A stretch of DNA of 63,090 bases, filler included, from Perkinsus olseni (Eukaryota): the NCBI GenBank assembly GCA_013115125.1. It is 2 parts of 2 records of this genome, joined end to end, with 100 filler letters (N's around TTAATTAATTAA, not from the genome) between each part and the next. Parts side by side here need not be neighbours in the genome. Positions count along the whole stretch, not along the records: positions 1 to 31,546 come from JABANN010000413.1; positions 31,647 to 63,090 come from JABANN010000414.1. One strand, written 5' to 3'. The notes beneath the pieces are model-generated. The model was not told where the DNA came from. It did no database searches and worked only from the letters and a program-made list of their open reading frames with translations. Shown here piece by piece: positions 24,649 through 62,100 of the stretch. The position numbers and the translations under genes were made by a program. How positions within the stretch are numbered: the first letter of the stretch is position 1; the number at the start of each line of letters is the position of its first letter.

Positions 24649-26647
24649 ATGTCATCCTACCATCACCGCGCTGTGCCCTACGGCAGACGCAGGGGCGACG
24701 ACGAAGGGAGGCAGCACATCAACAGCAGCAGCGTTCGAGATAGATACACGGCAACAGACCGACTGAGGTGAGCTACCGGTCCCTATTCTATTGCCCTATC
24801 GTGGTATACCACAATTCTCCCTATCCATGTGGGTGCTGGGCTATCGATCATAACCCGACGTCCCCTAATAACTATCGATAAGTCGTATTAATTTCATCGT
24901 CATCGTCCCGGCGGACTGTATTGTATCATCATCACCCTGTAGGTTCCAAGACGTTCAACGAGACTACGGCCGGTTAGTCACCCGAGACGAAATACGAGGG
25001 ATGACCGTCCATCAACGGTAAAGTCAGTACAGTAGAGGCATCTCAGAGCAATTTCTCAGGCATGAAGTAATGATGAGCATAGCGTTGTCAGCCAGTCGTC
25101 ATCATCATCAGAGCCGATCGGAAGGCAGTGTACGCAGAAGGGCGCGGTTTTGGGTCGTTCGGTGAATTCACGCCCGCGATTGTATACTAAGGAAACACTG
25201 TGGACCTCGGGTTGTCTTCGTTGGGTCGTCACCGCTAGGGGTGTCCCCAATTGACGGTTGAGGTTAGTGATAAAGTAATAATAGCAACCATAGGTTTACG
25301 TAAGAGACATTGAAAGGTCGCTCTACGAGAAGTCGCCATTCTAATCACCATTCGCTCCTCTTTGATGTGATTTCTTATGGCCTCTCGACTCGCTCCTGTT
25401 GCTGTGTCATCAGCATCGACCCCTCAGTGACTACGCCGCGCTGAAGTCCAAACACAAGTTCGTCCGAGAAGCCGAGGACGACGAGGAGGACTCCTGGGCC
25501 AACAGGCTCGCTAAAGCGTAGTCATGATTACCAGCTTCGCTCCGCTAAGATTAGTTTCTTCCAGGTATTACGACAAGTTGTATCATGAATACGTGATATG
25601 CGACCTCAAGGGGTACCGGAAGGACCGAATAGGATTCCGATGGCAAACCCAACAGGAGATGCTCCAAGGGAAGGGCCAGATGAGGTGATGATCTTGGTGG
25701 TGGCGGGGTTCCTCCGTATGACTCGAAGACGTCTTCGTTTTGCTCATTTTTGGACTATGCTAAAGTAAACTCGAGATCAGCGAAATTCATTGATCCAACA
25801 TCGCATAAATCGACAACTTCATATCAATTCGCTGAGAGAACTGATATGAAGTTCGATTTTGGGGTACTGACAGTCCCGCCAGATTTCTCGTCTTCCTAGC
25901 ATTGCCAGGTCGATCCGCCGCCCGATGGTTGTTGTTATCAGGTGCGCTAATATGCGTTGTAATTCCACCCAACATCTGCGCACTTTCGAAGTTGACTTCT
26001 CCTATAAGGAACATGGTGAGCATAAACGAGAGCTCGTTAAGGTAGTAAGGCCCTGGAATTGATGCCGCTCGAAAAAGCAACCGGGCGGCACAGACGGGTT
26101 CTTCCTTCGAACATCACGCGAACGCTCATCAGGTGCGACTGTGCTACTCGTGTAGTATCAAATTGAATTGGAAGTGGATTCGACGGGCTAAGCGGAAGGG
26201 CAAGGAGTTCCGTATCAAGAAGGATGAAGAGGACGGCGGCGAGGACGGAGCAGCCGAGGCCGGGACTGATGTTGTTGATCTATCTAAGGAAGGTGATATG
26301 GGTATCTACGCGTGCGTATCACGAGTCGTATGCGCCTGTCGCGTAAAAGCGACAGGCGCAAGGATTGAACCGGGGATCTTTGGATGAGGAAATGGATCGA
26401 TGTGCTTGGGCCTTAGATACTCGGATCAAAGAGGAGCCGACTGAGGGCAGTGAGAGTGCTGATGATGTTGATGAGAACGACAAGGAAGCCCTGAAGGTAA
26501 AAGTCGCACAGGTTCGATCCCGGGGAGAGGAGTTTTCAGGTACTCGAGGAGCGCATGTGGCGGAGCGACGCGGAAGGAGCTGTCACGAGCGGCGAAGAAA
26601 AACGTGCGAATGAATTTGAAGATTATTTCAATGATCTTTTCCAGTGA
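24649..26647 (+). CDS. FRA10AC1: FRA10AC1 homologue (spliceosome-associated), multi-exon
   Basis: HKFVREAEDDEEDSWANRLAKAYYDKLYHEYVICDLKGY...GFRWQT..E...GKGQ, CANMRC...LRTFEVDFSYKEHGEHKRELVKVRLCYSCSIKLN and C-terminal EFEDYFNDLFQ. Confidence 0.92.
26350..26385 (-). repeat. Intronic tRNA-3'-half/B-box element (antisense to FRA10AC1)
   Basis: AAGATCCCCGGTTCAATCCTTGCGCCTGTCG followed by CTTTT. Confidence 0.65.
26497..26539 (+). repeat. 43-nt intron consisting largely of a tRNA-3'-half/B-box element (sense)
   Basis: GTAAAAGTCGCACAGGTTCGATCCCGGGGAGAGGAGTTTTCAG. Confidence 0.75.
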
Positions 26648-26840
26648 ATCGTAAGTGCTTCGAGTGGAGGGCGAGGGCCAAAATCCGAGAGCAGTCAGGA
26701 AAAGACGACAGGAATTGAAACCTTGTTTTCCGAGTACGTCCGCGAAGTCTGCACTTCCCGCTCGGGTTTCGGGAATTACCAATTAGAGGGAATGTAAGAT
26801 GCAACCAAAGTCGGATTGGTCGGTTGAAACAGAGAAAGAT

Positions 26841-29089: not shown

Positions 29090-31448
29090 TCACGCTTCGA
29101 GGAAGGAGGCGTCCACTTCAGTGAAGTGGCGGTAGAAGCCTTGACAAAGTCGGAGCATCGAGTCAATGTCTTCAACCGAGCAGGTTTCCCTGAACATGAG
29201 ATGGGACTTACAGTCGGAAGGTGTCGAAGACGCGGATAGTTGAAGGCAAGGTAAGGATAATTTTGATGATGCAAAGATTTTGCCAGTACTAGTGGCCGAT
29301 AGGATACTCTTAGGGACTGTAACCACACCATTTCCAGCTCAAGATAAATCCGCTGAACTTGAATGCCGTCGTGGTTTCGAAAACTTGACGTGAAAACGAT
29401 GTAGAGCGGCAGAAGAATGAAGCCGGTCATAATCCGTACTTGGCTACTAAATCCTGATGATACTATCCAGATAGTTCAAAGACTGATAGGTGGATATCAT
29501 ATATTATTCACTATGAAAGTAAACAACGGTTTTGCCCATGATACTGAAGGAGGAGGAGGAGATGATGATGATGAAGGGTTACAGGCACAGGGATATGCAG
29601 AGAGTGTTGGAGAGGAGCTCGAGAGACTTCCTCCCTCCCGAGGCGATGAGAGACTCACCTTATGGAGTGCATAGCCCATTGAGTGATACCAAGATCAACA
29701 GTACGGATTCCGAGGTTGGCAGAGAGCATGGGCCCGATAGTAGAGCCACTGCTCGTACCGTTCTTCACAGTAAACTCCTGCAGGGGCACCTGAACAATTG
29801 GCAAATGACGGATTCGTCGGGTCGAATGGGCGTCGCTTACGTTCGATTTTTCGGCAACGACTCGTGTGATAGCGGTTGTAGCTGCGTTGGTAGCATAAAG
29901 TTGGTTAGGGTTGATCTTAATCGCCACGCCCTTTCCGAGGGCCGTCTTGTGTTCAGCCTGGTGACGCTCAGGATAATTCGGGTGAACTGCGTGCTCTCCA
30001 TCCGCCGAGACCAAAATCGACCTGAACCGACTAGAAATGTCGAGGCCAGGAATCGAACCCGGGACCTCCGGACCTCGCCACGAGCTCAGAATAGTCCTGC
30101 TCAGCTGAGAATCCCGCCAGGACTCGCTCGATCCAAGTTTGAACACTCTTCGAGTTGGCCCCGGTAGCACTGCGGGAGCCGACCTCCTCGTGGTTGAAGG
30201 CGACGGCAACAGACAGCTGGGAACCTGAAAAGCCCGTCGTGATTAGTCGAAGCTTTCTCCACACTACTACTCTTAGCGAGCTCATCAGCTTCGGTGGTGA
30301 TCGCGGAGAAGGCCGAGAAGGTTGAGACGAGATTGTCGAGCCTAGCGGAAGCGAGGAACTCTTCGTAGAGGCCGACGAAGCACGCCTTGGTGGCGTCCAT
30401 CATGCAGATGTCGAAGTCGAGGATATCTTCAACTTTGCATCTGATCGTGATGGAAGATGAGATTCCGGCCATGCGCTTCCTCGGTGTAAGTCGAACCGAC
30501 CCGCACGAATACTTCTCCCATGACGAGCCCTTGTCGTCGTTCCAGCCTAGGGCCGAATCTTCCGCAACTTCCCTTTTAAATCTCATTTCTTGTCTCACGG
30601 AAATTCTCACAGGTCTTAGATTATCACGCAATATCGAATCATCACCGGATTACCACAGAATTACGACGGTCGAGAAGAGTACAGCCAAATACAGAACGCA
30701 AATTCCGACGAGTTCGATGCAGAGCCGCCGAGGGCTGCATTATTATTACCCTGACTCATCCGCAAGTAGTTGGAGGAAGACTCGATGGTTCCCTCGGACA
30801 CGTTCCTCAGCAGAAGTGGCGTACTTCTTGGAGCAAAATACTGGGCTGAGGTGCTGCTCGGGATTGAACTGAAAGCAAGCAAGGACGCAGTGTGAGTGTG
30901 GGATAGAACCTGGGTGACTCGAAGCAAGCACCTACCTTGAAAGCCGCCCTCTCCTCGTTACTCTGCAGATGACGACACAAGTTGGGCATGATAGCGACTG
31001 GGCGAGGCACGCGTACCAACTTTTCGCGAATCTTACCCTCGCTGGCAAAGACGACCTTACCGGCCATCCCGAGGCCTCGGTCGAACCACGTGTGCCACAG
31101 CCCCCCACCATAAGGAGTCACACCGAGCTCGAACATTCCCTCGGACTCCTTGGCCGAGTTAGGGCACAATCTCAAGCAGGGGGAGTCAGTGTGGGTACCG
31201 ATGATGACCATACTAGACGTATTGGGATCGAAGTTCTCACCGACGATGAAAGAAAAGATCTCGGAACCGTCACGGATGGTGAAGTACTTGCCGCCCTTCT
31301 TCAAGTGCCACGTCTCGCGCTCACTAAGTCGTTCGAAACCGGCCTTTTTGAGGAGCTTCTCACATTCTAGAACCGAGTGGTAAGGGGAGCCTGTTTTGTC
31401 GACGAAATCTCTGAAAGCGCTGGCGGCAGCGGTAGGGAAGGCGGACAT
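29090..31448 (-). CDS. DNPEP: Aspartyl aminopeptidase (peptidase M18)
   Basis: GTHTDSPCL, PYGGGLWHTWFDRGLG, ARLDNL, FNHEEVGS, SADGEHAVHPNY, GSTIGP and AMHSIR|ETCS. The last exon ends at 29090. Confidence 0.95.
30022..30073 (-). repeat. Intron consisting of a tRNA-3'-half element (sense to DNPEP)
   Basis: GTCCGGAGGTCCCGGGTTCGATTCCTGGCCTCGACATTTCTAG..., with an intact T-stem CCGGG/CCTGG. Confidence 0.85.
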
Positions 31449-31546: not shown

Positions 31547-31646
31547 NNNNNNNNNNNNNNNNNNNNNNNNNNNNNNNNNNNNNNNNNNNNTTAATTAATT
31601 AANNNNNNNNNNNNNNNNNNNNNNNNNNNNNNNNNNNNNNNNNNNN
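31547..31646. other. Assembly spacer (N-run with TTAATTAATTAA six-frame stop linker)
   Basis: 100-nt N block containing ttaattaattaa at 31591-31602. Confidence 0.97.
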
Positions 31647-31647
31647 C

Positions 31648-31718
<71 letters not shown>
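31647..31718 (+). repeat. (CAA)n microsatellite
   Basis: Perfect CAA run at the start of the second contig. Confidence 0.95.
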
Positions 31719-34249: not shown

Positions 34250-37200
34250 TCAGATTGACTTGGGACGTCCCGCTGCTGCTAGCATGTTCGCCTGATCTTC
34301 GAACTGAGAGAACGGCAGGAGCATAGTTAAACAGAGCTTATACGGGCCGGTATTCTTACATTGAGGAAAGTGTTCTTCACAGACACGGGCACAGCAGCAC
34401 TGCTGCCCTCAGGACCAGTACCATAATATTGCTGCTGCTGATGCTGATGCTGCTGTTCATCCACACTGCCCTCTGGACTAACTGACTCCACTGAGCCTCC
34501 AGGGCCAGCAGCGTTCGGACCATTCATTCCCAGCATCTGCTGCCAGTCCGACAGCCCCGTCAAATACCGACCTGACCACCATGACAACTACCACCAAGAG
34601 CAGCAGCTAGCCATCCCCTACTAGGGTCCGCTAGATGAGGCATGTTGCTGGGGGTAAGGCCGTCCAACACGGACTTATTGCCAGCATTGGTGGCAGCATC
34701 ACTGGCCGTGTCTTGTGAGGGCATCCTCGTGAAGGAGCCAATACCGGCGCCGCCGCCAACGACCATTCGGGGTGCTAGATGGGGGCATTGACCGGTACCT
34801 GCCCTCGACGAGTAGCAGGAAATGGGTGAGCGTGTGGTAGCGTACATGGCTGAGGATCCACTTCAGCAACACCATCCAATACAACCATTGGTGACAGGGA
34901 TGCATCATGTAAAGCGGGAGCGGAAGAGACGCCTTCGAACCATGCTGGTGAGTTATTCATACCTAGCATCGACCTAAGATACTCCATCCGACGGGAGCCT
35001 CTGCTTACCAGTCTCCCTAAAGGACCATCTCAATCGTCCGAGATCATACTTGGTTACCTTGCCACAGCTACAATTCTCATCGTCAACCCTCATCACCTAA
35101 AGCGATGCAGCTGGATGGAGGAGGAGGAGCTAAGGCGACCCTACAAACAGCATGGCGGCGATCCTCGTAAAGGAGTCCTTGAGAGTAGGCACTTCTCTCG
35201 ACTTCTTCGCCAACGCTGTTAATACGTTGGCATAGTCGTGGATACAGAAAGTAGTGACTTGTTTAACACAGCATTCAGCCAGCTCCTCCCACAGGCCAGC
35301 ATCACCATAGGACGTGTTAGCTAGAGCCCACATCGAGTTGGACAAACAGTGGGGCGCCAACTCCGGAGCGTCATCGCGGAGCTTCTTGGCACAATCTTCA
35401 ACCTGACCAGCGACAGGCAAACACTACTGTCAAGATCTGGAGAGGTAGGAGATGTCAGCAAGCCACGACCTCACGTCCGCAAAGCGACGTTATGCGCAAA
35501 CGAGTAGGGAAGAGGAGCCGAGGCTGGTAATAGTACCAAATCCGAGTAATCTTCAACTTGACCCATCCTAACAAAACTCCACAGGCATAGGGAAATACTC
35601 TGTGCCGATAGACTGCCGAGGTTATCCCGAAGGACGTCACAGATCTCCTCAATCAACGGCATGACCTGAACCCAACTCGGAAGTACAGGCGGGGATGCAC
35701 GATCTCCTCCTTACCGAGCTGGACGCGGTGTGGCCGAGTTTGACTATGCCGTGCAAGAGCATGGCAGCATCCTGCGCCCCCAGACCAGTGGTCGAGTTTA
35801 TCAAATTCGCACGGTCGGCCAAGGCGTCAATAGCACAACAATCGCAAACACCCATCCGCGCGTAGGCACTAAATATGGTCGCTGAGAAAATATATTCAAT
35901 TCAAGCTGATACCACTCCTTCGCGAGTTCTTACAGATTTCAGCTGTTGAAAATCGGAAGCTCTTAGACTTCACATAGGTTGCTGTGGCGTCGACCAATTC
36001 TGGGTCCTTAGCCGCCAGATCCACGCCCATGTACGCTAGTGCCCATAGACACGTGCCTGACCAAGGGATCGAACCTCTGCGGGAGACGACTACACGGGTT
36101 GCAGACTCACTCAGTTGAGCTGGTGAGTATTTATCCAGATGCTCATCGAGTTGTCTAGCGATAGCGTCACAGCACACTGCGTCATGATAACCAAGTTTAC
36201 ATAGACCCCACGCAGCCGACGTCAAATCTTCGCAAGAGAACCTGAGGAGGACGAAGAGAATAGACGACCCGAAGACCAAACCCCTGCTGGACTTACTTCG
36301 AGGCGAACTGCGCCACACAAGCTTGGCAGGCTTGTATCAGGTCATCATGCTTGATACCAACACGCCCGAACGACTTCAAAATAGTAGCAACATCTTGAGG
36401 GTTAAGTCTCCCGGCCTGCTCATACCAACTTTCCCCCAACTTATTACTCCAACGCTTACCTGTGCGTGCATGAGTGCAACATAGCCACAGCGTTCAAAGA
36501 CCATCTTCACTCGCGTCCGATCCGAGATATGCGGAATCAGTCGGCTGAGGCCCCACAACGTCATCGATAAATCCTGCGGGTTGTACTTGTCGGCTTGCGA
36601 TAGAATCTAACCAACACCAACAATGGGCAACGGGGTGGCTTTATCCACTGGGGAGGCAGAGGTCGAGCAAAATGCATATCCAAAGGAATCTTTGCGCACA
36701 GCGAAGAACACGCATTTCCTTGCTGATAATGCCAGAATACCCGCACTATAAAAGATACGCCCTCCGAGTGGTGCCCTCAACCTACCCTATCACAGACAGC
36801 ACTGAAGTCGATACCCTCATACCAATCAATCTTGGCAAATGCCCAAATCGACCTCGAGATATCCTGGGCGACATACTCCGAGAGATGCTCGCAGAGGTAC
36901 CTGGGGCAGCACGATGAGTTGCCAAAGGTATGGTATTCATATTACGCGACAACAGCGCGTAAAAATTCGGCATCGCTCAACCCAACTTTAACGTGAGCCC
37001 ACAACATCTGTACAGCAACTCGAGGTGTACCTAGAAAAATGCACCACCCTAGAATCGAACCCGCGTCCTTCTCCCGCCCTACTTTTTGCCAGCCGAGGTG
37101 CAGCATAGGCGCACATGTCCCTCACGGGCCCTTCATAGCCGAGTTTGCCACATTGCTCACAAATACCCGTGAGAATAGCCAAATCAAGGCCAGTCTCACT

Positions 37201-46412: not shown

Positions 46413-46597
46413 GCCCGAGAGCGGTGGGAAATTCTGAACAGTGGCTTTGCTAGCCTGTCCGGCAGTGTCCTACAGGGAATAGACGCACTGTGGCAATCTC
46501 GCTACGCCCTAGTGATCGATTATGACCATCCGTCCCACTCAAACTCGACACCGCCGAGTATACAGTCAACTTATAGTGTACGAATGATGGTCATGTC

Positions 46598-49642: not shown

Positions 49643-49799
49643 CGTTCTACAGTTCCGGCGATTAATAATTGACCAACGCAAGAAACATAACAGAGGGTAA
49701 TGTACGTTCGAAGCCAGCAGAAATCAATTTGGCGCATCACAGGGTTCGGGCCGCTGAGGATTGCTTTGCTGGTCGCCGAGATACTTAGCGTACTTTTCG

Positions 49800-50643: not shown

Positions 50644-50824
50644 CGAAGGCAAACGAAGAAGTGCGCCGTAGACGATTTCGACTATTTGTCTATTTGAAAA
50701 ATCGTGGCTTACTACGCGCTCGCCCAGAAAATCGTAACTTGACGGTTGTCGCCTTAAGAGGAGCTTAGGGTGATTAAGATATTTTCGCTTTTCTCTCAGC
50801 CCCCCTTTACGTTATATATCTTCA

Positions 50825-52636
50825 ATGCCTGAAGCTGAGTCGAGGAAGAGAGCTCTTGATACCGATAAGGTGAAGTCAGGTCCGCCTGAGGTTATCTATG
50901 GTGATTCCAAAATAGAAGTTGCTGGTAGTACCATAAATCCCTCAAATCATGGGAATCATCGTGGCGTCCTCCTTCAGGTCTGTCGGACCCCTCTGAGGTT
51001 CCCCTTGCACGGACGTTCGACGAGTCCGGGCTTCGGAAATCTTTGAAGGAGTATCTAAAGGAGAAGTTCTCGACCCCGTCAGCTATCCAGGCAGCCTGCT
51101 GGCCCCTCCTCCTCTCGGGCTTGGACGTGGTCGGTGTCGCTGAGACTGGCAGCGGCAAGACCCTCGGCTTTGCACTTCCCTTCATGTCCAAGGCCATGCA
51201 TAAGGGAGATGATGGTATGATGATGGTCCTCTCTCCTACCAGGGAGCTAGCCAGGCAGATCCACGAGGTCATCGTGGATGTCGACAAAAAGAAGCAGAAG
51301 CTTCCATCGATCTGTCTTTACGGTGGCACCCCTAAGTGGGAGCAACAGAAGCAGTTGAAGGCAGAGAAGCCTCGGATGGTGATAGGGACTCCGGGCCGAG
51401 TGCTCGACCTCCTCCAGGACGGCTCCTTGGACCTCAGCAAGGTCAACTACGCTGTGCTTGATGAGGCTGATAGGATGCTTGATATGGGATTCCTTCCGAG
51501 TGTGACGGATATCTTTGGGTATCTTCCCGCACCTGATAAGAGACAATCTCTCATGTTCTCTGCTACTTGGAACAAGGAGGTAATAGTATCTTTTATTTTG
51601 TGTCGAGCCAGCTTCGACCTCAGGTGCGGAGGTTATCAAGGAAGTTGATGAAGCGTGAGCGTATTACTGTTACTGTGATGGGCAGTAATGAGAAGAAGAG
51701 CAATCAGGATGAGCTCACCGCCAACACCCGAATCACCCAAACGATAGATATCGTTCATGACCGGAAGCCCAAGATGAATCGTCTTTGGCACCACCTTGGC
51801 AACCTTTGCCCTAACAAGGGAGTCTGGAAGGTACTTATGTCTGGGGGGCAGGGACAGATTCGCTTTATTATCATAAAAAGTTGTGAAGAATTTGGTACAG
51901 CAAGTACCTTGGTGATATGTCACTTTTCTATCGGCTTTTCGTGAGTCTGATTCCCCTCTGTTATGTAGCGTGCTTTTGCTATTACTCACTCTCTGTAACA
52001 GGTCATCGTTTTTGCCCTGTATAAGAAGGAAGCCGCTCATCTTGAGCGAATGCTTCGGGATTACTATGATGTTGTTGGCCTTCACGGTGACATGACCCAA
52101 GTAGCGCGCGAGGCTTCCATTAAGCGATTTACGGAGGGCCAAAATCTGATACTGGTGGCTACTGATGTGGCTGCTAGAGGGCTCGATGTTAAGGACGTCT
52201 CAGGGGTTATCAACTATACCTTCCCATTGGTCATTGAGGATTATGTGCATAGGTAGGGAGATAGGCGAAGGTTCGATCCTCGGCGAGGCCATTTATGTTA
52301 GGATTGGTCGTACTGGTCGAGCTGGTCGTACCGGTCATGCAGTGACTATCTTCAATGCTGAGGAGGAGAAGCAGTTCGCCTTCGACCTCAAGGGACTTCT
52401 GGAACGATGCGGCCAGACGGTGAGAACCTCTCTCCGGCCACAGTCAGATGTGTATCTTCCATCGGCAGGTTCCCGAGGGCCTTGCTAAATTGGCTAACCA
52501 GACGGGTGGGTTCAAGGCTAGCAAGAAGAAGGTCCATCCTATCTACGGAGCTTTCTTCAAGGATGAGGAGGAGATGGCTAAGTTGGAAGCGAAGAAAACT
52601 CATGTCACGTTCTCGGATGACGAGGATGATGACTAG
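50825..52636 (+). CDS. DBP3: DEAD-box RNA helicase DBP3
   Basis: [40 protein letters not shown] and C-terminal [14 protein letters not shown] typical of Dbp3. Confidence 0.92.
52253..52301 (+). repeat. 49-nt intron with tRNA-3'-half element (sense)
   Basis: GTAGGGAGATAGGCGAAGGTTCGATCCTCGGCGAGGCCATTTATGTTAG. Confidence 0.78.
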
Positions 52637-53068
52637 GTCTCCAGCGCTTCCACGACGACGATCGATACTGAGATCTATTTTACGAGCTAATCGTCACTCG
52701 TCTGCTCCTGTATTAGTTACTGCTAGTTTCATTATTGGATATCTCATCGCCGTCGCTGGAGGGCTCGAAGGTCATCGTTACGTTTCTTCTATGTGTTCAT
52801 TAGTCTGGGGTGGGCTGCTGAGACCATCATGGTTTACACTCACTCAACGTACTGGAATCGGCAGGAACTACTGCCTTATCGTAATGACACTGTCCAATTA
52901 TACGCCGGTTTCTTGTAGAATTAGTTGAGTGTAGAGTGAAGGAGGGTCATATTTCAACCTGTTTTGTATCTTACTGGGTTCAACCTAAGATATCATGCTC
53001 GGCAGTTACTGTTTTTTAGTCTAATAATTGCAGCCTAGGCGGATTTAATTGGGGACTAGCGTTAGGGA

Positions 53069-56000
53069 ATGCCAAGAGTTCAAGAGTATCGGATAGTCCT
53101 CCCCATGGAGATTGAGCAATACCATGTGGCCCAGCTGTATATGGTAGCAAAGTCAAGCTTGGAAGACACCACTGGAGGGGCCGGAGTGGAAGTGGTCACT
53201 AATGAACCGTATGATAATGGTAGTAATGGCCGGGAGTGGGGTTCGAACCGGGGACCTAGTGCTGGTCAATAGTCGGGGAGGAAAGTGACTGCAACGAGTT
53301 ACCTCATCTTCCGCTGCATTGAAATATCGGCGGTCCAGCGTAAATGGTCAGGATGTTGAGCTCTCTCAGGGGAGACCCAGGGTCAATTCACTCACAAGCG
53401 TATTTCGATCGCTCCCTACTTACCCTCTTGGGTCACATCGTTGGTCAACCCGGATTGGCTGGTGTTTGACGAAAAGAGTTGGAACGCCTTCCCTCGGTGC
53501 CGCACCGTCTACTCCTGTCCCATGCTGAGCGAATTCTCGATGGAGATTGACAGTATGCACATCGAAGGCAACTGTACCGACGATAATGCATTAAAACTGG
53601 ATGGTAGTAATAGCAGCGACTGGACGTTTAAAGATGCCTGAACCGGGCGGAAAATCACTGTGAACCTCAGAGTCGGATTTGGCTAAGCGTAAAGTTGACT
53701 TCATCGATATCGTTAATGATCGTATATCGAGTAAGGATTATAATCCTGATGAGGATCCGACTAAGTGGCGCAGCGAGAAGGTAAGGCAATATCAACTCCA
53801 CTGGTTGCTGCTGTATTGTCTGCGTGCTAGCTCGGTATGGGCCCGTTGGAGTCGGACTGGATGGACACCACCCGACCAATCATGACCTGCTACAAGGTGG
53901 GTCTGGAATTGGGAGTTGCGATTGGAGTGGTATGGCTTATCAGGTTATACATGTCACTTGCAACCCAGGCTTCATGATGCAAAATAGAGTTGAGAGCTTC
54001 ATTGTCAAGGCCACTAAAACTACGCTTTTCAAGTAGTAGCAGGGATATCGGAGGGCCTGTTGCCGCGGCAAGCTCATGACGCGCCGCGAAGTCTACTGTG
54101 GTATGGTTCGATCTTGCGGAAGTTCAACTTGGATAGGTATCATCGTAAATGCGTCTGCTGGGCTGACGAGTGGGCGGCTCTGACGATGGATGATATCCGG
54201 CTGATGGAGGACAAAGTGCAAAAAAAATTGAGAAAGTTTTGGCGTGACAAGAGAATTGAGGAAGGCTTAGAAGTTCCGGACGATTCCGATAGCAGCGAGG
54301 TCGACATGGAGGTTGAAGATACTCCCAAGGCCGAAGAAGATGCCTCTCCTGGGAGTACTAGTGGCAGGTCGCGTAGTACAAGTCGATTGTCAGCTAACAA
54401 GGATACTACCGGCCTGCTGACGGTCACTGCATCACCGGTGGATCCGGCAAGGACGAGTGTGAGTGCTAGTGTCAACAATGATATATCGATCATTGGGGCG
54501 AGCGCTAAAGCGAATAGGAAGGCAGGAGTGGATGTGATGAGAGCTGGATCCTTGTTCAAGCTGGGAGATGGTATTATTAACACCAGTTGGAATGAGAGGT
54601 AATGAGAGAGGACGGCGTAGGAGAAAATTGGATAAAAAACTAGGACGGATTAATAAGAGCTGAGTACTATTGGATAGGTCCTTGTGATGTGTTGTGATAA
54701 AATAGAAACTCTTACTCTTCGTTCCCTCCTCGTTGAAACGTCTTTTCCGTCGGTCAATGGATGCTCTTTGCTCCGTCCGCTGCCATGACTGCTTCGAATG
54801 TTTTCTACCTGTCATCGGCAAATTTGTTACTTCTATTGTTATCAGCTCCCTCGAATATTGATTTTTCGTGCGCGTTTGGTGCCGAGGAGTAACATAGTAA
54901 AATACGAGTAAGACATGTCGCATCATGATTGTTGAGAAACAATTGGTCAGAGAAAATTTAATTTCGCAGCTCGGGGATCGCAGAGGAATACACCCTCTCA
55001 TTGGGAAATGCCGGTTGGAACAATGGTGGTGATTTTCCATATCGTAACTTCACTGAGGATGGTTATTTCTGAACCAGTCGTTTATTATTCGGAGTTGGTA
55101 TGATATGAAAATTATTGGGAGGAGCGCCTGCTCACCACCGTCCCCCCTTTTATCTGTAATCTTTTCGGTTTGCGGGGACCCAGCTGTGAAGGGCATCGAG
55201 ACGCGCTGCCTTCGGGCTCCTACTTGTAGGCTGCCCTCCTTTTGTAAGGTACTTTGTCCTGTCGGGGTCAGTGTTGAGCTACTATCGAGATTCACGCGAG
55301 TTGAGGCCGAAGGATAGTATCTCCATGAAGGGAGCTGTAGTGCAATGGTGTGGATCACATAAAGGCCGTGAGCATGCCTTCATAGTGGTAGTAGGCATTT
55401 TCTCGCGCGCCACGAAATTACTGATCTCGGCTGAACTGGTCAGATGCCCAGAGATAATCGTCGGCAGATAGTCGTGTCGGGTGGCAGTGAGGGCGAGACG
55501 AGGCAGTGGATGCTGTGGTGCCAGGAGGCAGCTGATAAGGCCACTGCCACGACTTCGATCGAGGGCAGCTCGCCCAAAGCTGTCAGTGCTGCTACTGTCA
55601 CGACGGAGGATCAACCGAGGGAAGAAGAGGCTGCCAAGGTTGAAGCTGGCGCAGGGCAGAATGCCGAGCTTGAGCAGTCCGATCGGGCGGAGTCGGTCGA
55701 GGAGGTGAAGCCGACGTCCACTGGTGGCCTCCTGCCTGATGAGTGTACACGGTACTTGCCTAGGGAGGCCTTAAAGGGAGTGGAAGGCTTGCTGAGGTTC
55801 GTCAGATGCGGGAATCAGAGGAATGATATGTGCGTGGTGTAAGATGTCGGGCGTGGGATTCGAACCGGAGACCTATAGCTCACCATCTCAGGTCCACTGA
55901 TAAGGGTTTAAGACTGTGGAGAGAAGTCGAGCGAGGGAGAGAGGAGGCTAGTTTTACGGTTTTGCTATCAAAAATATGGTCCGAGGCCACCCGAGTGGAC

Positions 56001-58119
56001 TTCTACTCTATACCCCTCTCCATCGCCTTTGCCATCACCACCGGTTTCGTATTCATCCTATCGGTAACTGGTGCTTTTCTGACACCTCTAGCTGTCGTTA
56101 CTCTCACTATGTGGCTTATGTCCCTGCGTGAGCTACGGCCTGTTATAGATGCAGTACAGAAGGGTACCTGTAGTGGTGTAGCGGTCGGAGAGGTCAGCAT
56201 ACCTACCGCCAGCAACGGCTTCATCGAAGCCGCCCTGTTGGACCTCTCGGAGTGGCACCGGTGGACGCCGGCCCTCCACGGTGATGCTGCGGCCAGGCTG
56301 TCCTGCACAGGCTTGATGATGGTGAAGTACAGAGGGCAGGAGATGGTGGAGCACATCATCAGACCAGTCCGGCGGAAGGGCACTCTGCCATCATTGATCA
56401 TGCTGCATTACAGCCAGAAGCGCAATGACGAGTACACCTGCTGGGCCGTCTACCCTCAGTCCTCATCAGTGTCGGTCATGATGGCCGGCACGAACGGGCC
56501 CGGCAAGGCTAAGCGGACGCTGGCCTTCATCAGGGAGTTCCTCAGTGGACTGCAGCTCGTCATGGTAGTCTGTCCCCGACCCCGCCCTTCTCTACCGGAC
56601 CTGGCCATGCCCCGAGGGAGCGAGCATATCCATGCCACCAGAAGGGGTGGTGGGGGCTGGGTGGAGCTGCCAATACCGTTCGGAGTGGCGGGTCTGGATT
56701 CGGCGCTGAAGACGGCGCTGCTGCACAACTCGGAGGAAGCGGTAGTGGGAGGGAGGTTAGAGGGAGAAGATGCGGCCAGTGTGATGCCGACGCTCATGGG
56801 TAGGTCACGGCGGAGCGAAGTTTTTTCGCGGATATTGACGTTGTCTCAGCAATGTCGTATATGTTCCTCCAGTCGAGTGTCTACCTGCCGAGAGCAAGCA
56901 CTGCCGTCGTTAATAATGATGCTCCGCGAGCGGTAGGAAAAATACCAAATGCTAAAATTGAACCCGGGTTGTATACAGCAGACCTCTGCTCAACCGTTTG
57001 GCCGAGTGACCTTCTCAATGGTCTCTTTTGCAGTTACAACTCGTCGCGGCGTCTTTAGTAGGAAGTCTGCAACGCCTCCTCTGTGCTCTCCAGAGCAGCG
57101 ATGCCTTCCTAGCTACCACTCCTGCAGCTGCTGCTGCGTCGAAGGCCGTCATCATCCCGGGTGATACCTGCCAGTGCAGGGCGACCCCCAGAGGAGGAGG
57201 GAGAGGGGGGCAGGGCGGCGCGGAGATCTGCTGGGAGGCCATCAACGCCAACCATGCATACTATCTAGTGACGGAAGAGAAGGGCAATGGACGGTGGACT
57301 CAGAGAGGAACCATCAAGTGAGAAGGGAAAAATGCCGGATCTGGGATTCGAACTGGGGACCTCGTGGTTGACGCACGGCTTGCCAGGTACGGGGTGTCCC
57401 TGTTACCTCCCTCACTGCGCCATAGGACTACTGGGATAGTCCTTAACCTCACAGGCCACCACTATATCGATTTCCTGAGTAGTGATGATGGTAATATCGC
57501 AGCGGAGCGAAGCAACAAACGATCGTCCAACAAGGCTGTCACAGCTAGGGTCACGGAGTTGCCAAAGCTCGTAAGAAAGTGTCACGTGCCGGGGTCGAAC
57601 CTGGGACCTCCTCCTTCACAGGTTTGCCGTCCTCTAAGCGGGTCGTCCAAGCATTGTTTGCTACGGTGGGAAGGGTGTATCACTATCAGCATCCCTGGCG
57701 ACACTGGGGGCACTTGTAAGCTCTCAATAGCCGACCCCTCGACTGGTGAGCAACAGCATCCACCGCCGCTGTTCCCCGTCCGACTCCTCGTCTTCTCAGG
57801 CTTGGTGACTGGTAGTGTCCGCAATGGTCGAGGGGTCCTGCACAGCTATGCTGAGGGCAACATCTTCGACCGTTTATGTTTCGATGGAGAGCCCCTGTGG
57901 ATGAGCGGAGAACTCCCAGACGATTTGGTTCAACCTTCGGAGGAGACAGTGGGGGCCTTCCCGCCTAAGGGGCCTCTGGTCGAAATAGAGGTGGGGTGCA
58001 GGGATCGAACCAGAGACCTTTCGACTGCTTCGTCTTAGGTTGAACCAAACAAGCGTCTCCTGCCAACCGATTGCCACAGTCACCATTCAACTGGCCGCTC
58101 TAGTCGTGTATCATCATAA
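53069..58119 (+). CDS. Multidomain lipid-transfer protein: PITP + PH + START-like + degenerate oxysterol-binding-like domain
   Basis: PITP: EYRIVLPM..EQYHVAQLYMVAK, GVEVVTNEPY, EKSWNAFPRCRT, YHRKCVCWADEW..LTMDDIR. PH: GSLFKLG...WNER|YFVLSG..LSYY. START-like: LLDLSEWHRW. ORD-like: PGDTCQC..., LLPTDC. Confidence 0.8.
53227..53265 (-). repeat. Intronic tRNA-3'-half element (antisense)
   Basis: GCACTAGGTCCCCGGTTCGAACCCCACTCCCGGCCA. Confidence 0.8.
55841..55881 (-). repeat. Intronic tRNA-3'-half element (antisense)
   Basis: GCTATAGGTCTCCGGTTCGAATCCCACGCCCGACATCTT. Confidence 0.8.
56937..56971 (-). repeat. Intronic degenerate tRNA-3'-half element (antisense)
   Basis: AACCCGGGTTCAATTTTAGCATTTGGTATTTTT. 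Confidence 0.6.
57328..57370 (-). repeat. Intronic tRNA-3'-half element with T5 tract (antisense)
   Basis: CCACGAGGTCCCCAGTTCGAATCCCAGATCCGGCATTTTT. Confidence 0.82.
57571..57621 (-). repeat. 51-nt intron with tRNA-3'-half element (antisense)
   Basis: GGAGGAGGTCCCAGGTTCGACCCCGGCACGTGACACTTT. Confidence 0.8.
57991..58038 (-). repeat. 48-nt intron with tRNA-3'-half element (antisense)
   Basis: GCAGTCGAAAGGTCTCTGGTTCGATCCCTGCACCCCAC. Confidence 0.8.
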
Positions 58120-58174
58120 TTGCTGTTCTATTTTTAGTATGTATTATTAATACCATCCTTTCCCCGAATCATCA

Positions 58175-59023
58175 TCATGTCATGTCGAGTTCACAAGGTA
58201 GTGAACGACCCTTTGGCTCAGCTATGCTCCTCCCTTCCTTCCTCCTTCTACCCATCATCGATGCTTCTGTCTGGGACCCAGCGCCCTGCCTTCGTGCATG
58301 CCCGGAGCTCTCCCAGTCAGTGGCCCTGTTGGAGGCCCTGGTGTACTCTCCTTCCTTGATAGCAGCAGCTCTGTCGGGGGGTCCCGAGGCCGGGTAATGA
58401 TAGAGAGGGGAGACTTTGGCCCTTCCAGTGGGTGTTGACAGGTACGAGGCTGTTCGAGAGGATGGGCAATATTCTTGTGTAGCCGAGAAGCTCTGTGGGA
58501 CATGCACGGAGGTGAGGCAGTGGGATGGAACCTGGGACATATTGAGAGCTGCTCGGTGCTTCACCACTTGACCAGGTTTCCACGTGCGACCTTGGTCGAT
58601 GCATCGTCGATAACATAGAGTGTCGGCGGTTGACTGAGCTCACTTCGGAATTGGTGAAGATATGCTACTGCGCCATCGGTGAGGAGGCCCATCACCCCTC
58701 CCCTGCACGACTCATCGCCCCAGGCTATGATATCGGCCTCCTGAGCCAGATGATCGACCCTCAATGGACGGCCGACCCTCCGCTTTGTGAAGGCGGCTCC
58801 GGCGCTCCTGAGGGCACGGCTGAACGGATAGGAAGCTCATGCGGAGGTGAGTATCTTTATCCAGTGTGACAGATCTTCGCTTTCTCGCAGATTTCGAAGT
58901 TTCCGAGTTCCTTGCTGGTACTCGAGACGAGTCTGGCGGCCCTGTAGATAGGGACGATAAGAGCGGGGCGGAGCAAAGCACTTGCAGAGTTATCACGTTC
59001 ATCACCCTTATGGGTATCTCCAT
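58175..59023 (-). CDS. Hypothetical protein, multi-exon; boundaries uncertain
   Basis: Coding-like blocks (LRVDHLAQEADIIAWGD...ARGNLVKW) separated by GT-AG intron 58493-58564, which carries a degenerate B-box GTCCCAGGTTCCATCCC. Confidence 0.35.
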
Positions 59024-59105
59024 GTTATTATAGTTGTTACCATTGCTGTTATCTTGGTTGTTGTGCAGTTGGGAGGGTGTTCACCAAGCATCCTCGTAGC
59101 CGTTG

Positions 59106-62100
59106 ATGTCGTTTAACGGCGGTAGTCCTCCTCCCCCTCCGCCACCACCAGCGCCTCCAGAGGTCAGCCATCCCATAGGGCAGACGGCTGCTGCCAGCGC
59201 CCCTGCCGCGGTAGTGGAGGCCGCGATCGCTGCCGCTGCTGTTTCTTCCCCTCCTCCCCCCGCTCCTCCCCAAGCACCAGCATCGCTGCCAACGACCAGC
59301 AGTAGGCCGCCCAGTGCTGCCGCTAGTACGGCCACCATCAGTACATCGGGAGTCAACACTAGATTGAAGGTTGAGGAGATGAAGCAGTACCTCGATCAAG
59401 CTAAGTGCCTGTAATACTGGTTGTGGAAGAGTGGCACTTGCGGGGATCGAACTTATGCGGGTTTCCCGCAAGATGTTGGTCTCAATTCAGATTCGCCGAT
59501 TCGCCGGGGAAGTACGAGGAATTACTGGAAGTTATAGCCGGTAAGAAGAACATCTCCAGTAGCTTCCTGAGGCTTCCCTCAGGCATGTCCAAGCGGACTC
59601 GACCTCGCCCGCCGCCAACACCCCCACCAGCTAGCGCTGCTACCTCCACTCCGACTGCTCCCACCGCCAGTGGCCTCGGGGCTCTAGTAGGGCAGCTACA
59701 GCAGCTCAGCAGCAATAACACTACCCCTGGCCAGCCGACAGGAGCGACAGCAGTTGGCAGTTCGAGCGTCCAGATGATACAGGCTCTGCAGGGCTTGATG
59801 CAGCACCCCACTCCGCAGGCCCCAGCCCAGCCACAACCAACTCCTATGGAAATCGCTCGGCAGGAAGATGATACATCCGAACTGTGAGGGAGGAGAGATG
59901 TGCGTATCTTTATTACCTGTTCTTTGCCAGGGACAACCTAGATGTTGGTACATTAATCGATCGGCTGTTGAAGATATTCGAAGGTCACGGAGCGGCTAAG
60001 TCAATGGTAGCTTCGGCGGATCGAGCGAAGCCTCCCTTCTGAAGGGTGGGCGTCAGGTCCTTTGTTTCCTCCAACTGTGTCGACTCTCCAACCATCCCGC
60101 TGCGAGTTGGCTGTTTGAGGAGGCGGAGAGGCTGAGGGAAGCTGAGGTGAAGAGACAAAAGGAGACGGAAGAGAAGGAAGCGGTCGGTGGTTAAAATGCT
60201 GCATGCCGGGTTTGAACCGGAGTGTGTTTCAGTTTGCAGCGGTGAGTGCGGCGGCACGCGCTACGGCTGACGTAGTCGGCCCTCCCGGACCACCGATATG
60301 TCTGGATCGCGCAGCGACTATGGCGTTCCTGACTGCTGGTAAGCTGCTACGGGAACATGACTTTTCTCATTATTCTCAACTCAGTCCTTCCAACGCTACC
60401 GAGCAACGTTTATGCGGTAAGCAAAAGGTCCCTGGTTCGATTCCCAGTAGATGTATTTTCCCTCTAGGTCTTAAGCTCGGGTGTTTATCAAGGTCTTGAG
60501 GCCGGTATAGTAAACAGTAACTTCGACGAGGGTATGAGGAGGGTCCTCCAGAACTACGCTATGGCCACTTCAGTGTAAGAGCCGGGATGGATCCTTCCGT
60601 GTCTGTTGGCTCTCTCGCACCTCAGCCAAGACGGGTAACTGAGTGGCTGATGCCGACAGTGGTGGGCAGGTACCTGGCGCATCGTAAGTCTATGATAAGA
60701 GTGCATGGAACCAACGAGTCAGCATTCCCGAGTAAATCCTCCAATACGAGGAGGTTGCCAGCAACAACAGCTAGAGGGAAGAGAAAGCGCGGTGGTCGTG
60801 GTGCGAAAGTGGCTTCTACCACTAGCTCCGAGGAGGTGAGTTTTTCCGGTATCGAGCGTTTTTACGTGAGTTAAAACCTCATAGGCGCTCAACAGGATTG
60901 TGATAATTTCAGAACGGGCAAGTGTCGAGCGAGGAGACCAGCGGGGAGCCTCTCACGCCAGAGTCGGATGAAGGGACTGATCCATCTCTGCCGCCGTCGC
61001 GGCCGGCGAGAGGCCGGAAGAGAAGGGTAATTTCTGATGGAAAAAGTGTGAAATTGATCCACCTCTCACAGGCGGCGGCTGCGCCATCATCATCGGAGGA
61101 TGATGATGCAGTACCGAAACGGCGATCAACTCGTCGAACTAGGAGCACCGCTGTGAAGGTGAGCAGTGGAAGGTGTCATAGTCAGTTTACTTACTATCGG
61201 TCGCTCCAGGCGGAGGCGTCGCGAGGCGGCGGCGGTGCAGTGTCGTCGTCCTCTTCTGAGCTGGACTCGGCTGAGGGCACCAAGCGCGGGGGCCGTACTA
61301 CGTCGAGGAAGAAGGGCAGCAGGAGCTCACCATCGGCTGCTGCTGCTGTTTCCAACATGCCCTCACCGGCGCAGAAGTTGGCGGAGAGGACAACCATTGA
61401 GGGAAGGGAGAGGGCTGTGCTGGAGATGCTGGCCGCCTTGCTACCACCAACACTGGCCCATGAGCTGTAGGGATCGATGAAGTGGTGGAAGTGTGGTATT
61501 GTGGAGGGTTCTCAGGTATAAAACGTTATCCATTTGGTTGGCAGGAGGTTTCGAGGTCTCGACTGTGACAAGCTTCTTAGAGTAAGAGAGAGGGTCGTCC
61601 GTCGTCGTTGGTGGGTACTAGCGTTTTCAGGCGAATCCTTGGCCACTTGCGAGGTTGTGCTACAGCTCCAGCATCAACAGATGATGATGATGAGGAGGAA
61701 GAGGAGGGCGGACCTGATGTCGAAGCGCAGCGGAAACATGATGCTATCTTCGATATCTACACCGACCAAGAACGTGATGATACTCATTGGCGGAGCGAAG
61801 CGTTTCATGTTTACTCATTTTGTAACGTCTTTTAGGTACAGTATTATTGAATCGACTGCGAGAGCTGGACCATGCTGTGGTTGAGGTTTGTAGCAAGCAT
61901 ATCGTCGACCTCATTAATGCCGCCCTTCTCAAAAGGGAGGCGGCCAAGCAACGGAAGGTACAGCGGCGAAGGGCCCCCCTTCCTGTGACCTACAGCTCAG
62001 CGTCAGGTTATGAAGGAAGCCCCGAAGGCTGATGGGTGTAGGAGTTACCTTAGCCACTTGTAGGTGCCTCTTCCTGGTGGCGGGGCACAGCTGCTGCTAT

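Follow-up and report, generated by a model that had tools for sequence, protein, structure and literature searches.

Introners, known from Micromonas, Aureococcus, fungi and the dinoflagellates Polarella, Symbiodinium and Amoebophrya, are repeat families whose members form whole spliceosomal introns in many unrelated genes, with splice sites at or beside the element ends, and both properties recur in the sequences described here. Dinoflagellates are the sister lineage of Perkinsus. According to the available portion of the Polarella account (10.1101/2020.10.14.339549), introners there created introns in either orientation and splice sites were recruited at the element ends; creation in either orientation is common to some dinoflagellate classes and to our Perkinsus olseni copies. 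In the portions available, the main text of two large introner surveys mentions neither tRNA nor SINEs nor Pol III (PMC9860276, PMC12130899). Within the genus Perkinsus, mobile DNA is likewise linked to unusually numerous tRNA genes: P. marinus has hundreds of copies of a few tRNA genes, and its Dada DNA transposons (4.7-11 kb) are inserted at a fixed site in the A-box region of real tRNA genes, although the Dada account, as far as its available portion goes, touches neither introns nor tRNA 3' halves (PMC3706591). tRNA-derived SINEs and tRNA retro-pseudogenes are also dispersed, many-copy, tRNA-related sequences with a Pol III B-box; as expected of 5'-truncated retroposition, their 3' end is fixed while the 5' end varies, a trait they share with our copies. 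Finally, the ETC sites of yeast and human and the COC sites of fission yeast are isolated B-boxes that likewise come with neither an A-box nor a complete Pol III gene; there too the DNA sequence is conserved rather than an RNA structure.

All counts given here refer to one window of P. olseni, the whole 63-kb stretch of DNA that was analysed. The species is a clam parasite. A preliminary description of this window had reported dispersed, intronic tRNA 3' halves carrying a B-box, apparently of an undescribed kind, and this descriptive core holds; no published description of such an element was found in the literature searched. In a comparison with dinucleotide shuffles, the B-box consensus GGTTCRANYC was well above expectation, with 19 matches against a mean of 2.40 (100 shuffles; standard deviation 1.63, largest 7). 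These 19 include the true tRNA-Glu(CTC) gene and a palindromic site at 53240 counted on both strands, and 17 distinct sites remain when the gene and the double count are removed. All 20 main sites listed earlier were recovered, with offsets of at most 2 nt. A gapped nhmmer profile made from 23 copies placed 21 of them at 12.7-24.6 bits and left 2 as marginal, while the top non-element match reached 5.2 bits and the null maximum 9.0 bits (10 shuffles); because the copies themselves supplied the profile, these scores gauge separation from noise and not independent discovery. The score distribution was bimodal, with no tail of decayed copies. Four weaker copies had also been put forward: those at 42568 (8.9 bits) and 58522 (9.2 bits) are marginal, whereas those at 30901 (4.4 bits, within noise) and 54105 fail, the last being rejected since it sits in a protein-aligned coding exon of the PITP gene. 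The copies, and the one true tRNA gene, are as follows.

7572-7601, minus strand: degenerate copy with core GGTTCGCTGC, not within a verified gene, in a region intergenic per the ab initio model; PWM 18.3, nhmmer 14.0 bits.
18660-18733, minus strand: true tRNA-Glu(CTC) gene, not a member of the family; ARAGORN, Rfam RF00005 61 bits.
26350-26379, minus strand: element (positions 44-73), strict core, antisense in predicted plus-strand intron 26343-26416 of a FRA10AC1-like gene (putative name); PWM 34.1, nhmmer 18.8 bits; intron from ORF junction and ab initio model.
26503-26532, plus strand: element, subfamily B (CCCGC/GTCGC-ACAGG-TTCGATC), sense in predicted plus-strand intron 26497-26539 (43 nt); nhmmer 17.9 bits.
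30038-30067, minus strand: element, sense in minus-strand intron 30031-30073 of an M18 aspartyl aminopeptidase gene; PWM 39.5 bits; Pfam Peptidase_M18 profile positions 259-305 in the preceding exon and 309-413 in the following one.
36054-36083, minus strand: element, subfamily B, sense in predicted minus-strand intron of about 36036-36093 (boundaries uncertain); PWM 23.0, nhmmer 14.0 bits.
37040-37069, minus strand: element, sense in predicted minus-strand intron 37031-37082 (52 nt); PWM 37.2 bits.
39440-39469, minus strand: element, sense in predicted minus-strand intron 39415-39499 (85 nt); best nhmmer score, 24.6 bits; overlapped by an ARAGORN call at 39440-39509 (90% threshold).
42555-42584, minus strand: marginal copy, core GGTTCGGACC, sense in predicted minus-strand intron 42539-42590; PWM 7.1 bits, nhmmer 8.9 bits, at the null maximum.
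43194-43223, minus strand: element, sense at the 3' end of RNA-confirmed minus-strand intron 43183-43409 (227 nt; RNA contig joint in runs X1 and X6); PWM 32.1 bits.
43843-43872, minus strand: element, sense at the 3' end of RNA-confirmed minus-strand intron 43836-43939 (104 nt); PWM 38.7 bits.
44759-44788, minus strand: element, sense, filling RNA-confirmed minus-strand intron 44745-44801 (57 nt); PWM 36.0 bits.
46673-46702, plus strand: element, subfamily B, in no verified intron, near the upstream end of the minus-strand gene at 43-46.5 kb; PWM 31.2, nhmmer 18.9 bits; RNA depth drops in its bin; weakly placed by the ab initio model as antisense in a 410-nt intron.
52262-52291, plus strand: element, sense, filling plus-strand intron 52253-52301 (49 nt) of a DBP3-like DEAD-box helicase gene, the HRIGRTGR motif being split by this intron; RNA joint and gap against protein P0001.
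53228-53257, minus strand: element, antisense, with a palindromic core (GGTTCGAACC), at the 5' end of plus-strand intron 53223-53369 of the PITP+PH gene; 150-nt gap in the alignment to P0122, and a gene model; the copies at 55857 and 57345 have it as their nearest relative.
55845-55874, minus strand: element, antisense in plus-strand intron 55839-55891 (53 nt) of the PITP gene, from protein alignments; donor GTAAGA is the complement of trailer TCTTAC; an RNA contig piece begins at 55892.
56943-56972, minus strand: element, core GGTTCAATTT, antisense in plus-strand intron 56933-57033 (101 nt) of the PITP gene, from protein alignments; PWM 22.4, nhmmer 12.7 bits.
57333-57362, minus strand: element, core AGTTCGAATC, antisense in plus-strand intron 57318-57386 (69 nt) of the PITP gene; 69-nt gap against both P0121 and P0122; PWM 35.6 bits.
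57580-57609, minus strand: element in plus-strand PITP intron 57571-57621 (51 nt), antisense, donor GTAAGAAAG; the two protein alignments each have a gap of 51 nt; PWM 37.2 bits.
57990-58019, minus strand: element, antisense in plus-strand intron 57979-58038 (60 nt) of the PITP gene; alternative donor 57991; 48-nt gap in both protein alignments, the spliced CDS being open with the 57979 donor.
58511-58540, minus strand: marginal copy, core GGTTCCATCC, in predicted plus-strand intron 58479-58575; PWM 10.1, nhmmer 9.2 bits; A-box-like TGGTCAAGTGG 42 nt upstream.
59432-59461, minus strand: element, subfamily B, core AGTTCGATCC, antisense in predicted plus-strand intron 59411-59490; PWM 18.9, nhmmer 15.1 bits.
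60197-60226, minus strand: element, antisense in plus-strand intron 60183-60232 (50 nt); P0124 reads KEA/FAAV across the segment.
60426-60455, plus strand: element, sense in plus-strand intron 60417-60467 (51 nt); 51-nt gap against P0124, parsed by hand; PWM 38.7 bits.

A copy is laid out as variable loop, T-loop/B-box, exactly 11 nt from C61 to position 73, C72-A73 and then a T-rich trailer, without CCA. AGGTC occupies positions 44-48, with C48 kept in 22 of the 23 copies; C72 and A73 are each present in 17. These flanking features (AGGTC, the 11-nt spacing, C72-A73 and the trailer) are outside the pattern searched for and are nonetheless tRNA-like. Since a genomic T-run and not CCA stands at the end, the source was a gene or primary transcript rather than a mature tRNA.

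About a quarter of the short introns in the window are almost wholly the 3' half of a tRNA gene, in either orientation. Among the introns backed by RNA or protein (n = 45), 12 carried a copy; exons backed in the same way (8,685 nt) carried none, in line with the earlier statement that almost none occur in exons. The chance, by length, of all 12 falling in introns is 7e-7. In the ab initio model, predicted introns hold 22 of the 23 copies, 24.1 kb of intergenic DNA holds 1 and 22.7 kb of exon holds none. The intron assignments are backed by RNA joints for 4 sense copies, by protein gaps for 7 antisense and 1 sense copy, and by Pfam continuity for 1; the introns of 8 others are predicted from ORF junctions and the ab initio model, and 2 copies (7584 and 46681) are unplaced. 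The lengths of the host introns, previously given as mostly 43-75 nt, range from 43 to 227 nt; their median is 58 nt, compared with 51 nt for element-free introns (n = 33, p = 0.11); the shortest host introns have 43 nt and the shortest element-free evidence-based intron 37 nt. Because element-bearing introns are not longer than element-free ones, the element appears to be the intron itself rather than something inserted into an older intron.

Of the 21 copies that could be placed, 11 lie in the sense and 10 in the antisense orientation of the host gene. In every case, and in both orientations, the trailer end of the copy adjoins a splice site. The preliminary description had overlooked both the antisense copies and this anchoring. 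In sense copies, the T-run and YAG are the polypyrimidine tract and the acceptor; in antisense copies, the donor is the complement of the trailer (GTAAGA, GTAGGA, GTGAGA) and is followed by an A-run. Position 73 is 5-32 nt (median 11) from the splice site and the opposite side measures 6-186 nt. Short introns consist of the element plus 5-20 nt on each side, and in all 9 introns of more than 60 nt the surplus is on the tRNA-5' side. A target-site duplication was not separable from the genome's general AG/GT junction signature, which is also found in element-free introns. Restriction to introns, and a nearly palindromic core that puts UCGA into the RNA of both orientations, could also point to a splicing signal peculiar to this species (a consensus for the branch site or for an intronic enhancer) whose likeness to a T-loop is accidental. 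This is very improbable, considering that the motif is absent from 33 of the 45 evidence-based introns, all of them spliced, and that its distance to the acceptor is highly variable. Moreover, the upstream AGGTC and the constant distance of 11 nt to C72-A73 and the T-run are tRNA-gene features without a splicing rationale.

Conservation along the copies is uneven. At positions 52-58 the commonest base makes up 94%, but its share drops to 43% over positions 66-71 and to 41% over positions 39-43, both near chance for 23 sequences. The outer T-stem pairs are at chance level (22%, 52% and 35%), a loss of pairing that had also escaped notice, and host introns fold no better than shuffles (mean z near 0, 12 introns); the loss of T-stem complementarity indicates a constraint on sequence and not on RNA structure. 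The earlier remark that no A-box half is present stands for 20 of the 23 copies, and the other 3 have an A-box-like match upstream. All this would be expected if the host kept the copies as lone B-boxes where TFIIIC binds but Pol III does not transcribe, in the manner of ETC and COC sites, to serve as landmarks of chromatin, replication or transcription, introns being the available room in a compact genome. The occurrence of both gene-relative orientations, as expected of a DNA-level site, and the bimodal scores would fit as well, and so would the location of 19 of the 23 copies on the same DNA strand as the true tRNA gene (binomial p = 0.0026), although this bias is confounded by clusters of related, like-oriented copies within genes. 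Nevertheless, we consider this explanation rather unlikely. It leaves unexplained why the trailer is always at a splice site and why the element is the whole intron, and AGGTC (44-48) and C72-A73, which are outside the B-box proper, are conserved too. Towards its 3' end, Sin3 has a series of at least 12 introns in a row without a copy, which would be odd for a regular landmark. The ETC sites known so far are few, and most are intergenic or close to promoters, whereas the density here is about one element per 1.5 kb, in introns; unlike ETC and COC sites, the copies keep the variable loop, the discriminator and the terminator of the tRNA gene. A TFIIIC-binding role might also be a later domestication of inserted elements, and is in that sense compatible with an introner-like origin.

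The copies are also related to one another. Pairs within the same gene are more alike than other pairs (0.467 versus 0.393 at 27 variable positions, permutation p = 0.0078), the three most similar pairs are all within the PITP gene, and subfamily B is common to 4 copies. No near-identical copies were found among the 23, the best pair agreeing at 74% of variable positions, and so there is no sign of recent mobility. Simple neutral decay of one master copy would not give the uneven conservation described above, and selection on the core during copy-from-copy spread, or selection by the host, would be needed. The true tRNA-Glu gene scored 6.8 bits against the element profile, below the 12.7-24.6 bits of the members, so the family follows a consensus of its own and does not stand for tRNAs in general. 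This poor fit of a real tRNA also speaks against the reading that complete tRNA genes or pseudogenes decayed inside older introns and were trimmed by deletion to the 3' half, without having created these introns. The A-box-like matches lie at about the right distance in a few longer introns (3 of 23, against 0.8 expected) and would favour such remains, as would the very many tRNA gene copies in Perkinsus noted in the available portion of the Dada account (PMC3706591). However, host introns as short as element-free ones would require exact compensating deletions each time, and neither the trailer anchoring in both orientations nor the relatedness of same-gene copies is expected. No copy matched the Rfam tRNA model at E values up to 10, including 131-nt searches of the two longest candidates. 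We regard nested tRNA remains as decidedly unlikely.

With moderate confidence, we propose that the copies are a tRNA-gene-derived, introner-like family that forms whole introns and spreads from copy to copy, often locally. The preliminary description had left it open whether tRNA fragments created or colonised introns; the lengths, the trailer splice sites and the family structure fit creation best. The source would be the 3' portion of a tRNA gene, which starts near position 44, takes in the T-loop/B-box, the acceptor 3' strand and the discriminator, and runs on to the Pol III terminator T-run. Copies would have entered coding sequence with the 3' end fixed and the 5' end variable, a pattern that may reflect 5'-truncated RNA-mediated copying or an element end that supplies a splice site, and such insertions would be tolerated since splicing removes them whichever way they face. 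Existing copies probably give rise to new ones, often a short distance away within one gene and without a change of orientation. The B-box and T-run may be preserved as a requirement of copying or through a host use acquired later. The system looks like an apparently undescribed kind of intron-making repeat. In contrast to known introners, the copies are a tRNA gene 3' half with B-box and Pol III terminator, their introns are very short (typically 43-60 nt), no terminal inverted repeats or separable target-site duplication were seen, and they are highly diverged outside the conserved core. Compared with SINEs, they have no A-box-bearing head, body, or LINE-like or A-rich tail; the T-run follows directly after position 73, as in a tRNA gene, and the copies are almost only the 3' half and confined to introns.

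Three minor observations concern single copies. An 11-bp inverted repeat (26332-26342/26349-26359) overlaps the copy at 26350-26379, and its loop holds the donor GTAAAA. The copy at 60426-60455 and an antisense copy 225 nt upstream share one gene. For the copy at 59432-59461, a perfect 7-mer complement of its acceptor strand lies 22 nt past position 73.

As the preliminary description had anticipated, the B-box motif GGTTCRANYC was far more frequent in the window than in shuffled sequence: 19 matches were found, against a mean of 2.40 and a maximum of 7 in 100 dinucleotide shuffles of the window. Seventeen distinct sites were left after setting aside the double count of one palindromic site and the match in tRNA-Glu(CTC) (18660-18733), the sole true tRNA gene in the window according to Rfam and to ARAGORN at its default setting. 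A weight matrix made from these 17 sites gave 23 matches of at least 10 bits, tRNA-Glu included, compared with 1.1 (largest 4) in 30 Markov shuffles. We also built a gapped profile from the 23 copies of the element, which is the 3' half of a tRNA gene with a T-run trailer. Under this profile 21 copies scored 12.7-24.6 bits, and those at 58523 (9.2 bits) and 42567 (8.9 bits) were marginal; the best other match reached 5.2 bits and the maximum over 10 shuffles was 9.0 bits. Since both models were trained on the copies, they show separation from noise and not independent discovery. The independent support is the flanks outside the search pattern, and a flank-only search, a weak test, gave seven matches, all with the core, where 2.7 were expected by chance. 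The core itself was intact in 17 of the 23 copies and carried one or two mismatches in six. All counts were obtained from this one window. The 20 main sites of the preliminary description were all recovered within 2 nt, and its four weaker copies fared less well: that at 54105 lay in the coding sequence of the PITP gene, that at 30901 was within noise, and the remaining two are the marginal copies 58523 and 42567.

The scores were bimodal. The 40 evidence introns scored either 22-39 bits or no more than 3.1 bits, the 3.1-bit case having a truncated boundary, and the exon controls did not exceed 0.1 bits over 200 pieces. The gapped profile agreed, with introns containing a clear copy or nothing, and no tail of decayed copies was found in the score distribution of the window introns. 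We consider the tRNA-half intron feature to be real and strongly non-random and, apparently, undescribed.

The location of the copies was investigated with RNA, protein and profile evidence. Altogether, 21 copies were placed in introns of at least nine genes. The earlier claim that the hosts are spliceosomal introns was borne out by RNA, protein or Pfam support for 13 copies; eight host introns were assigned by inference, and the copies at 7584 and 46681 were unplaced. Among 45 introns with RNA or protein support, 12 carried a copy, while none was present in 8,685 nt of exon with such support, in agreement with the remark that almost none occur in exons; the chance that 12 of 12 would fall in introns, weighted by length, was 7e-7. 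The RNA evidence consisted of contigs of two RNA runs over 41000-60900, and at least four introns with a strict-core copy were found among the 15 listed of 52 RNA joints. In the PITP+PH gene (+ strand), alignments to the proteins of P. olseni and P. chesapeaki had gaps exactly at 53222-53371, 55839-55891, 56933-57033, 57318-57386, 57571-57621 and 57979/57991-58038. Another Perkinsus protein, P0124, was continuous across 60183-60232 and 60417-60467, and the Pfam Peptidase_M18 profile passed from position 305 to 309 across 30031-30073. The three protein-guided spliced coding sequences were open for 1443, 3447 and 1353 nt. A retrained ab initio model, a rough denominator with exact recovery of 29 of the 40 evidence introns, assigned 22 of the 23 copies to predicted introns and the remaining one to intergenic sequence (24.1 kb predicted), leaving the 22.7 kb of predicted exon empty. 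A first ab initio gene finder was discarded for gross over-prediction (377-566 introns), ORF-length heuristics alone were too noisy for strand assignment, and Pfam searches of ORFs in 58.1-60.9 kb and of several other exons gave nothing usable.

The distribution of the copies was patchy. Towards the 3' end of the Sin3 gene (60900-62900), about 12 short introns (37-72 nt) had no element, and the 6 kb upstream held 10 copies; the first 26 kb of the window had only one degenerate copy.

The copies followed the geometry of a tRNA 3' half, comprising the variable loop, the T-loop GTTCRANNC, 11 nt to the discriminator and a terminator T-run. AGGTC occupied tRNA positions 44-48, and only one of the 23 copies lacked C48; the spacing from C61 to position 73 was exactly 11 nt; 17 of the 23 had C72 and likewise 17 had A73; and a short T-rich trailer followed position 73. 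None of the copies had CCA after position 73, which makes the source a gene or primary transcript and not a mature tRNA. Conservation was sharply uneven along the element, and its lowest values were near the expectation for 23 random sequences.

Share of the commonest base among the copies, by tRNA position
Positions 52-58: 94%
Positions 61-62: 83%
Positions 72-73: 74%
Positions 74-78: 72%
Positions 44-48: 68%
Positions 66-71: 43% (near random expectation)
Positions 39-43: 41% (near random expectation)

The tRNA structure was lost. The three outer base pairs of the T-stem could form in 22%, 52% and 35% of the copies, and about 37% was reckoned for random pairs with G-U allowed. With the Rfam tRNA model (RF00005) at E up to 10, the window gave tRNA-Glu and no copies, and two 131-nt searches with the tRNA model gave nothing. 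ARAGORN at default called one gene in the window and no copies. At its 90% threshold two calls were added, which ended exactly at position 73 of two elements and ran into exons; at 80% there were 42 calls, mostly spurious. By covariance model and ARAGORN alike, the copies did not form a cloverleaf. That the elements are trimmed nested tRNA genes fits worse than an introner-like origin, and we regard it as very doubtful. All copies had the B-box and 3 of 23 an A-box-like match upstream, so the earlier statement that the A-box half is missing stands for 20 copies and is qualified by these three. tRNA-derived SINEs, by contrast, have a promoter with both boxes, and also a body, a 3' tail that is A-rich or related to a LINE, and a partner LINE; the trailer here is a short T-run. 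Nor did tRNA-Glu fit the family, reaching 6.8 bits against the gapped profile, which indicates a family with its own consensus and not a sampling of all tRNAs.

A role as a stable hairpin or T-arm in the pre-mRNA was rejected, because the host introns were no more stably folded than their shuffles: z averaged near 0 for 12 element introns and about -0.2 for eight element-free introns. A mini-helix, with the acceptor strand pairing with the 5' part of the intron or downstream, was rejected as well, there being no general complementarity (p about 0.27). Two copies had local complements of the acceptor strand. At 26332-26342 and 26349-26359 there is a perfect 11-bp inverted repeat, one arm of which is the acceptor strand of an element, with the donor GTAAAA of the element intron in the loop; in the copy at 59444, a 7-mer lying 22 nt after position 73 is perfectly complementary to the acceptor strand. 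By our estimate, chance would give about 0.06 copies with such nearby complements among the 23, where two were seen. Those at 26362 and 59444 could be the start of a next tandem tRNA unit or a snap-back product.

Relative to the host gene, 11 of the 21 placed copies were sense and 10 antisense (6 and 7 among the 13 independently supported). The six copies of the PITP gene were all antisense, the eight in minus-strand genes were all sense, and in one gene two copies of opposite orientation were separated by 225 nt. In every case the trailer end adjoined a splice site, 5-32 nt away (median 11), and the other side of the element was 6-186 nt from its splice site. Sense copies contributed their T-run and the YAG after it as polypyrimidine tract and acceptor; the trailer of antisense copies, read as its complement, supplied the donor (GTAAGA, GTAGGA or GTGAGA) and then an A-run. 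Copies splice out in either orientation because the terminator trailer can act as acceptor tract in one and as donor in the other. In short host introns, the element and the splice sites made up the whole intron, and all nine host introns above 60 nt had their additional length on the tRNA-5' side. Host introns did not exceed element-free introns in length (median 58 vs 51 nt, p=0.11). A branch-point reading of the motif was rejected. That the motif is a splicing signal fits worse than an introner-like origin and seems to us scarcely credible.

We propose that the element is most likely an introner-like element sourced from the 3' half of a tRNA gene with its terminator. The element apparently being the intron itself, its 3' end giving a splice site either way and its variable 5' extent point to insertion into coding sequence, which would have been tolerated because the insert is spliced out. 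Truncated RNA-mediated copying would be expected to leave the 3' end constant and the 5' end variable. AG/GT at both junctions is general to the evidence introns (e.g., 43511-43591, 50925-50977 and 51580-51623), element-free ones included. Among the 15 RNA-confirmed introns listed of 52 joints, the next exon started with GT in 9 and with G in 13, and donors across the evidence introns were purine-rich GTAGKA, not GTAAGT. No target-site duplications separable from this pattern were found in the window introns, no near-identical copies occurred among the 23, and the usual signs of transposition (target duplications, termini and near-identical recent copies) were not seen in the window. The only sign of copying was local relatedness. 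At 27 variable positions, likeness was 0.467 for same-gene pairs vs 0.393 (permutation p=0.0078), and the three most similar pairs were among the PITP copies 53240, 55857 and 57345, the best sharing 74% of these positions. A distinct left half, CCCGC-ACAGG, was common to four copies. The relatedness of same-gene, same-orientation neighbours suggests that copies may spread from copies with a local preference. On the raw count, 19 of 23 copies were on the minus strand of the window; this bias of 19 to 4 is confounded because like copies cluster within genes, and local spread would account for much of it.

The conserved core beside random flanks admits two explanations. A copy-from-copy process would keep what the element needs for copying and let the rest drift, and the pattern is then explicable without any host function. 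Host selection on the B-box, as a putative TFIIIC site used by the host and possibly a later domestication of the element, would give the same pattern; this role leaves the anchoring to splice sites unexplained, and we consider it unlikely. A joint reading is bolder: a quarter of Perkinsus introns would be domesticated tRNA-half introners, whose B-box and terminator are host-selected as putative TFIIIC-bound, strand-oriented landmarks, with RNA-mediated intron spread in addition. We hold it to be decidedly unlikely. Were it true, the landmarks would number tens of thousands genome-wide, the Pol III machinery would be coupled to the way Pol II genes are organised in chromatin or for replication, and movement to nearby sites within one transcript would show intron transposition in action.

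ETC sites are B-boxes without an associated Pol III gene that are occupied by TFIIIC without Pol III. The copies resemble them in having the B-box consensus without a full Pol III gene. Like introners, they are a related sequence family forming introns in many unrelated genes. In Polarella, some classes of introner are reported to give rise to introns whichever way they insert, and their splice sites come from the element ends and target duplications (10.1101/2020.10.14.339549); AG/GT at both junctions here resembles this target-duplication signature of dinoflagellate introners. The main texts of two introner surveys do not mention tRNA, SINE, Pol III or B-box, and their supplements could list Perkinsus (PMC9860276, PMC12130899). 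For P. marinus, 349 gene copies of tRNA-Leu and 116 of tRNA-Gly are reported, along with Dada transposons that sit within tRNA genes, and the sections consulted contain nothing on introns (PMC3706591); introns of this species are reported elsewhere to be mostly short (PMC3101222). The preliminary description did not recognise the system as described, and likewise we found no description of tRNA halves in Perkinsus introns in the literature on introners and on Perkinsus introns, tRNA and SINEs.

The origin of new spliceosomal introns is a long-standing question. Known intron-generating elements are mostly DNA transposons, and a family from the back half of tRNA genes would add a new class of intron source, tied to Pol III genes. 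P. olseni, a commercially important shellfish parasite, is a perkinsozoan alveolate, and the lineage matters because it branches next to the intron-rich dinoflagellates. Intron transposition through RNA is a debated idea, on which local, same-orientation spread within genes bears. Moreover, a B-box so sharply conserved where the tRNA structure is gone is a concrete, testable case for large-scale retention of TFIIIC sites in genes. In practice, such copies will be a source of confusion when tRNAs and repeats are annotated in Perkinsus genomes.

Several other features of the window were recorded. The DEAD-box helicase exon at 50980-51579 was 100% identical to the NCBI entry 'RNA-dependent ATPase [Perkinsus olseni]', and two further genes had their best matches in P. 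olseni and P. chesapeaki proteins. For the PITP gene (53105-58116), the nearest P. olseni protein, P0121, was only 94% identical over the long exon; compared with the helicase exon, this sequence difference suggests a diverged allele, a paralogue or a strain difference. A metagenome scan for orthologues of the gene gave 246 pattern matches, none of them a relative. Its intron at 54599-55248 is about 650 nt, and its other introns are 48-163 nt; a low-depth RNA contig piece (54572-55276) runs unspliced through the long intron and may represent a retained intron or a nested transcript. A near-perfect 70-nt hairpin at 10144-10213, which is a long inverted repeat, was matched by Rfam to a mir-627-like precursor (46.5 bits, under the gathering score of 86), and 5648-5723 (minus strand) gave a weak C/D-box snoRNA-like match to sn2429 (26.3 bits, under the gathering score of 50). 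Two N runs of 44 nt each (31547-31590 and 31603-31646) lie on either side of TTAATTAATTAA, and a (CAA)n microsatellite some 70 nt long comes after them (31547-31718 region).
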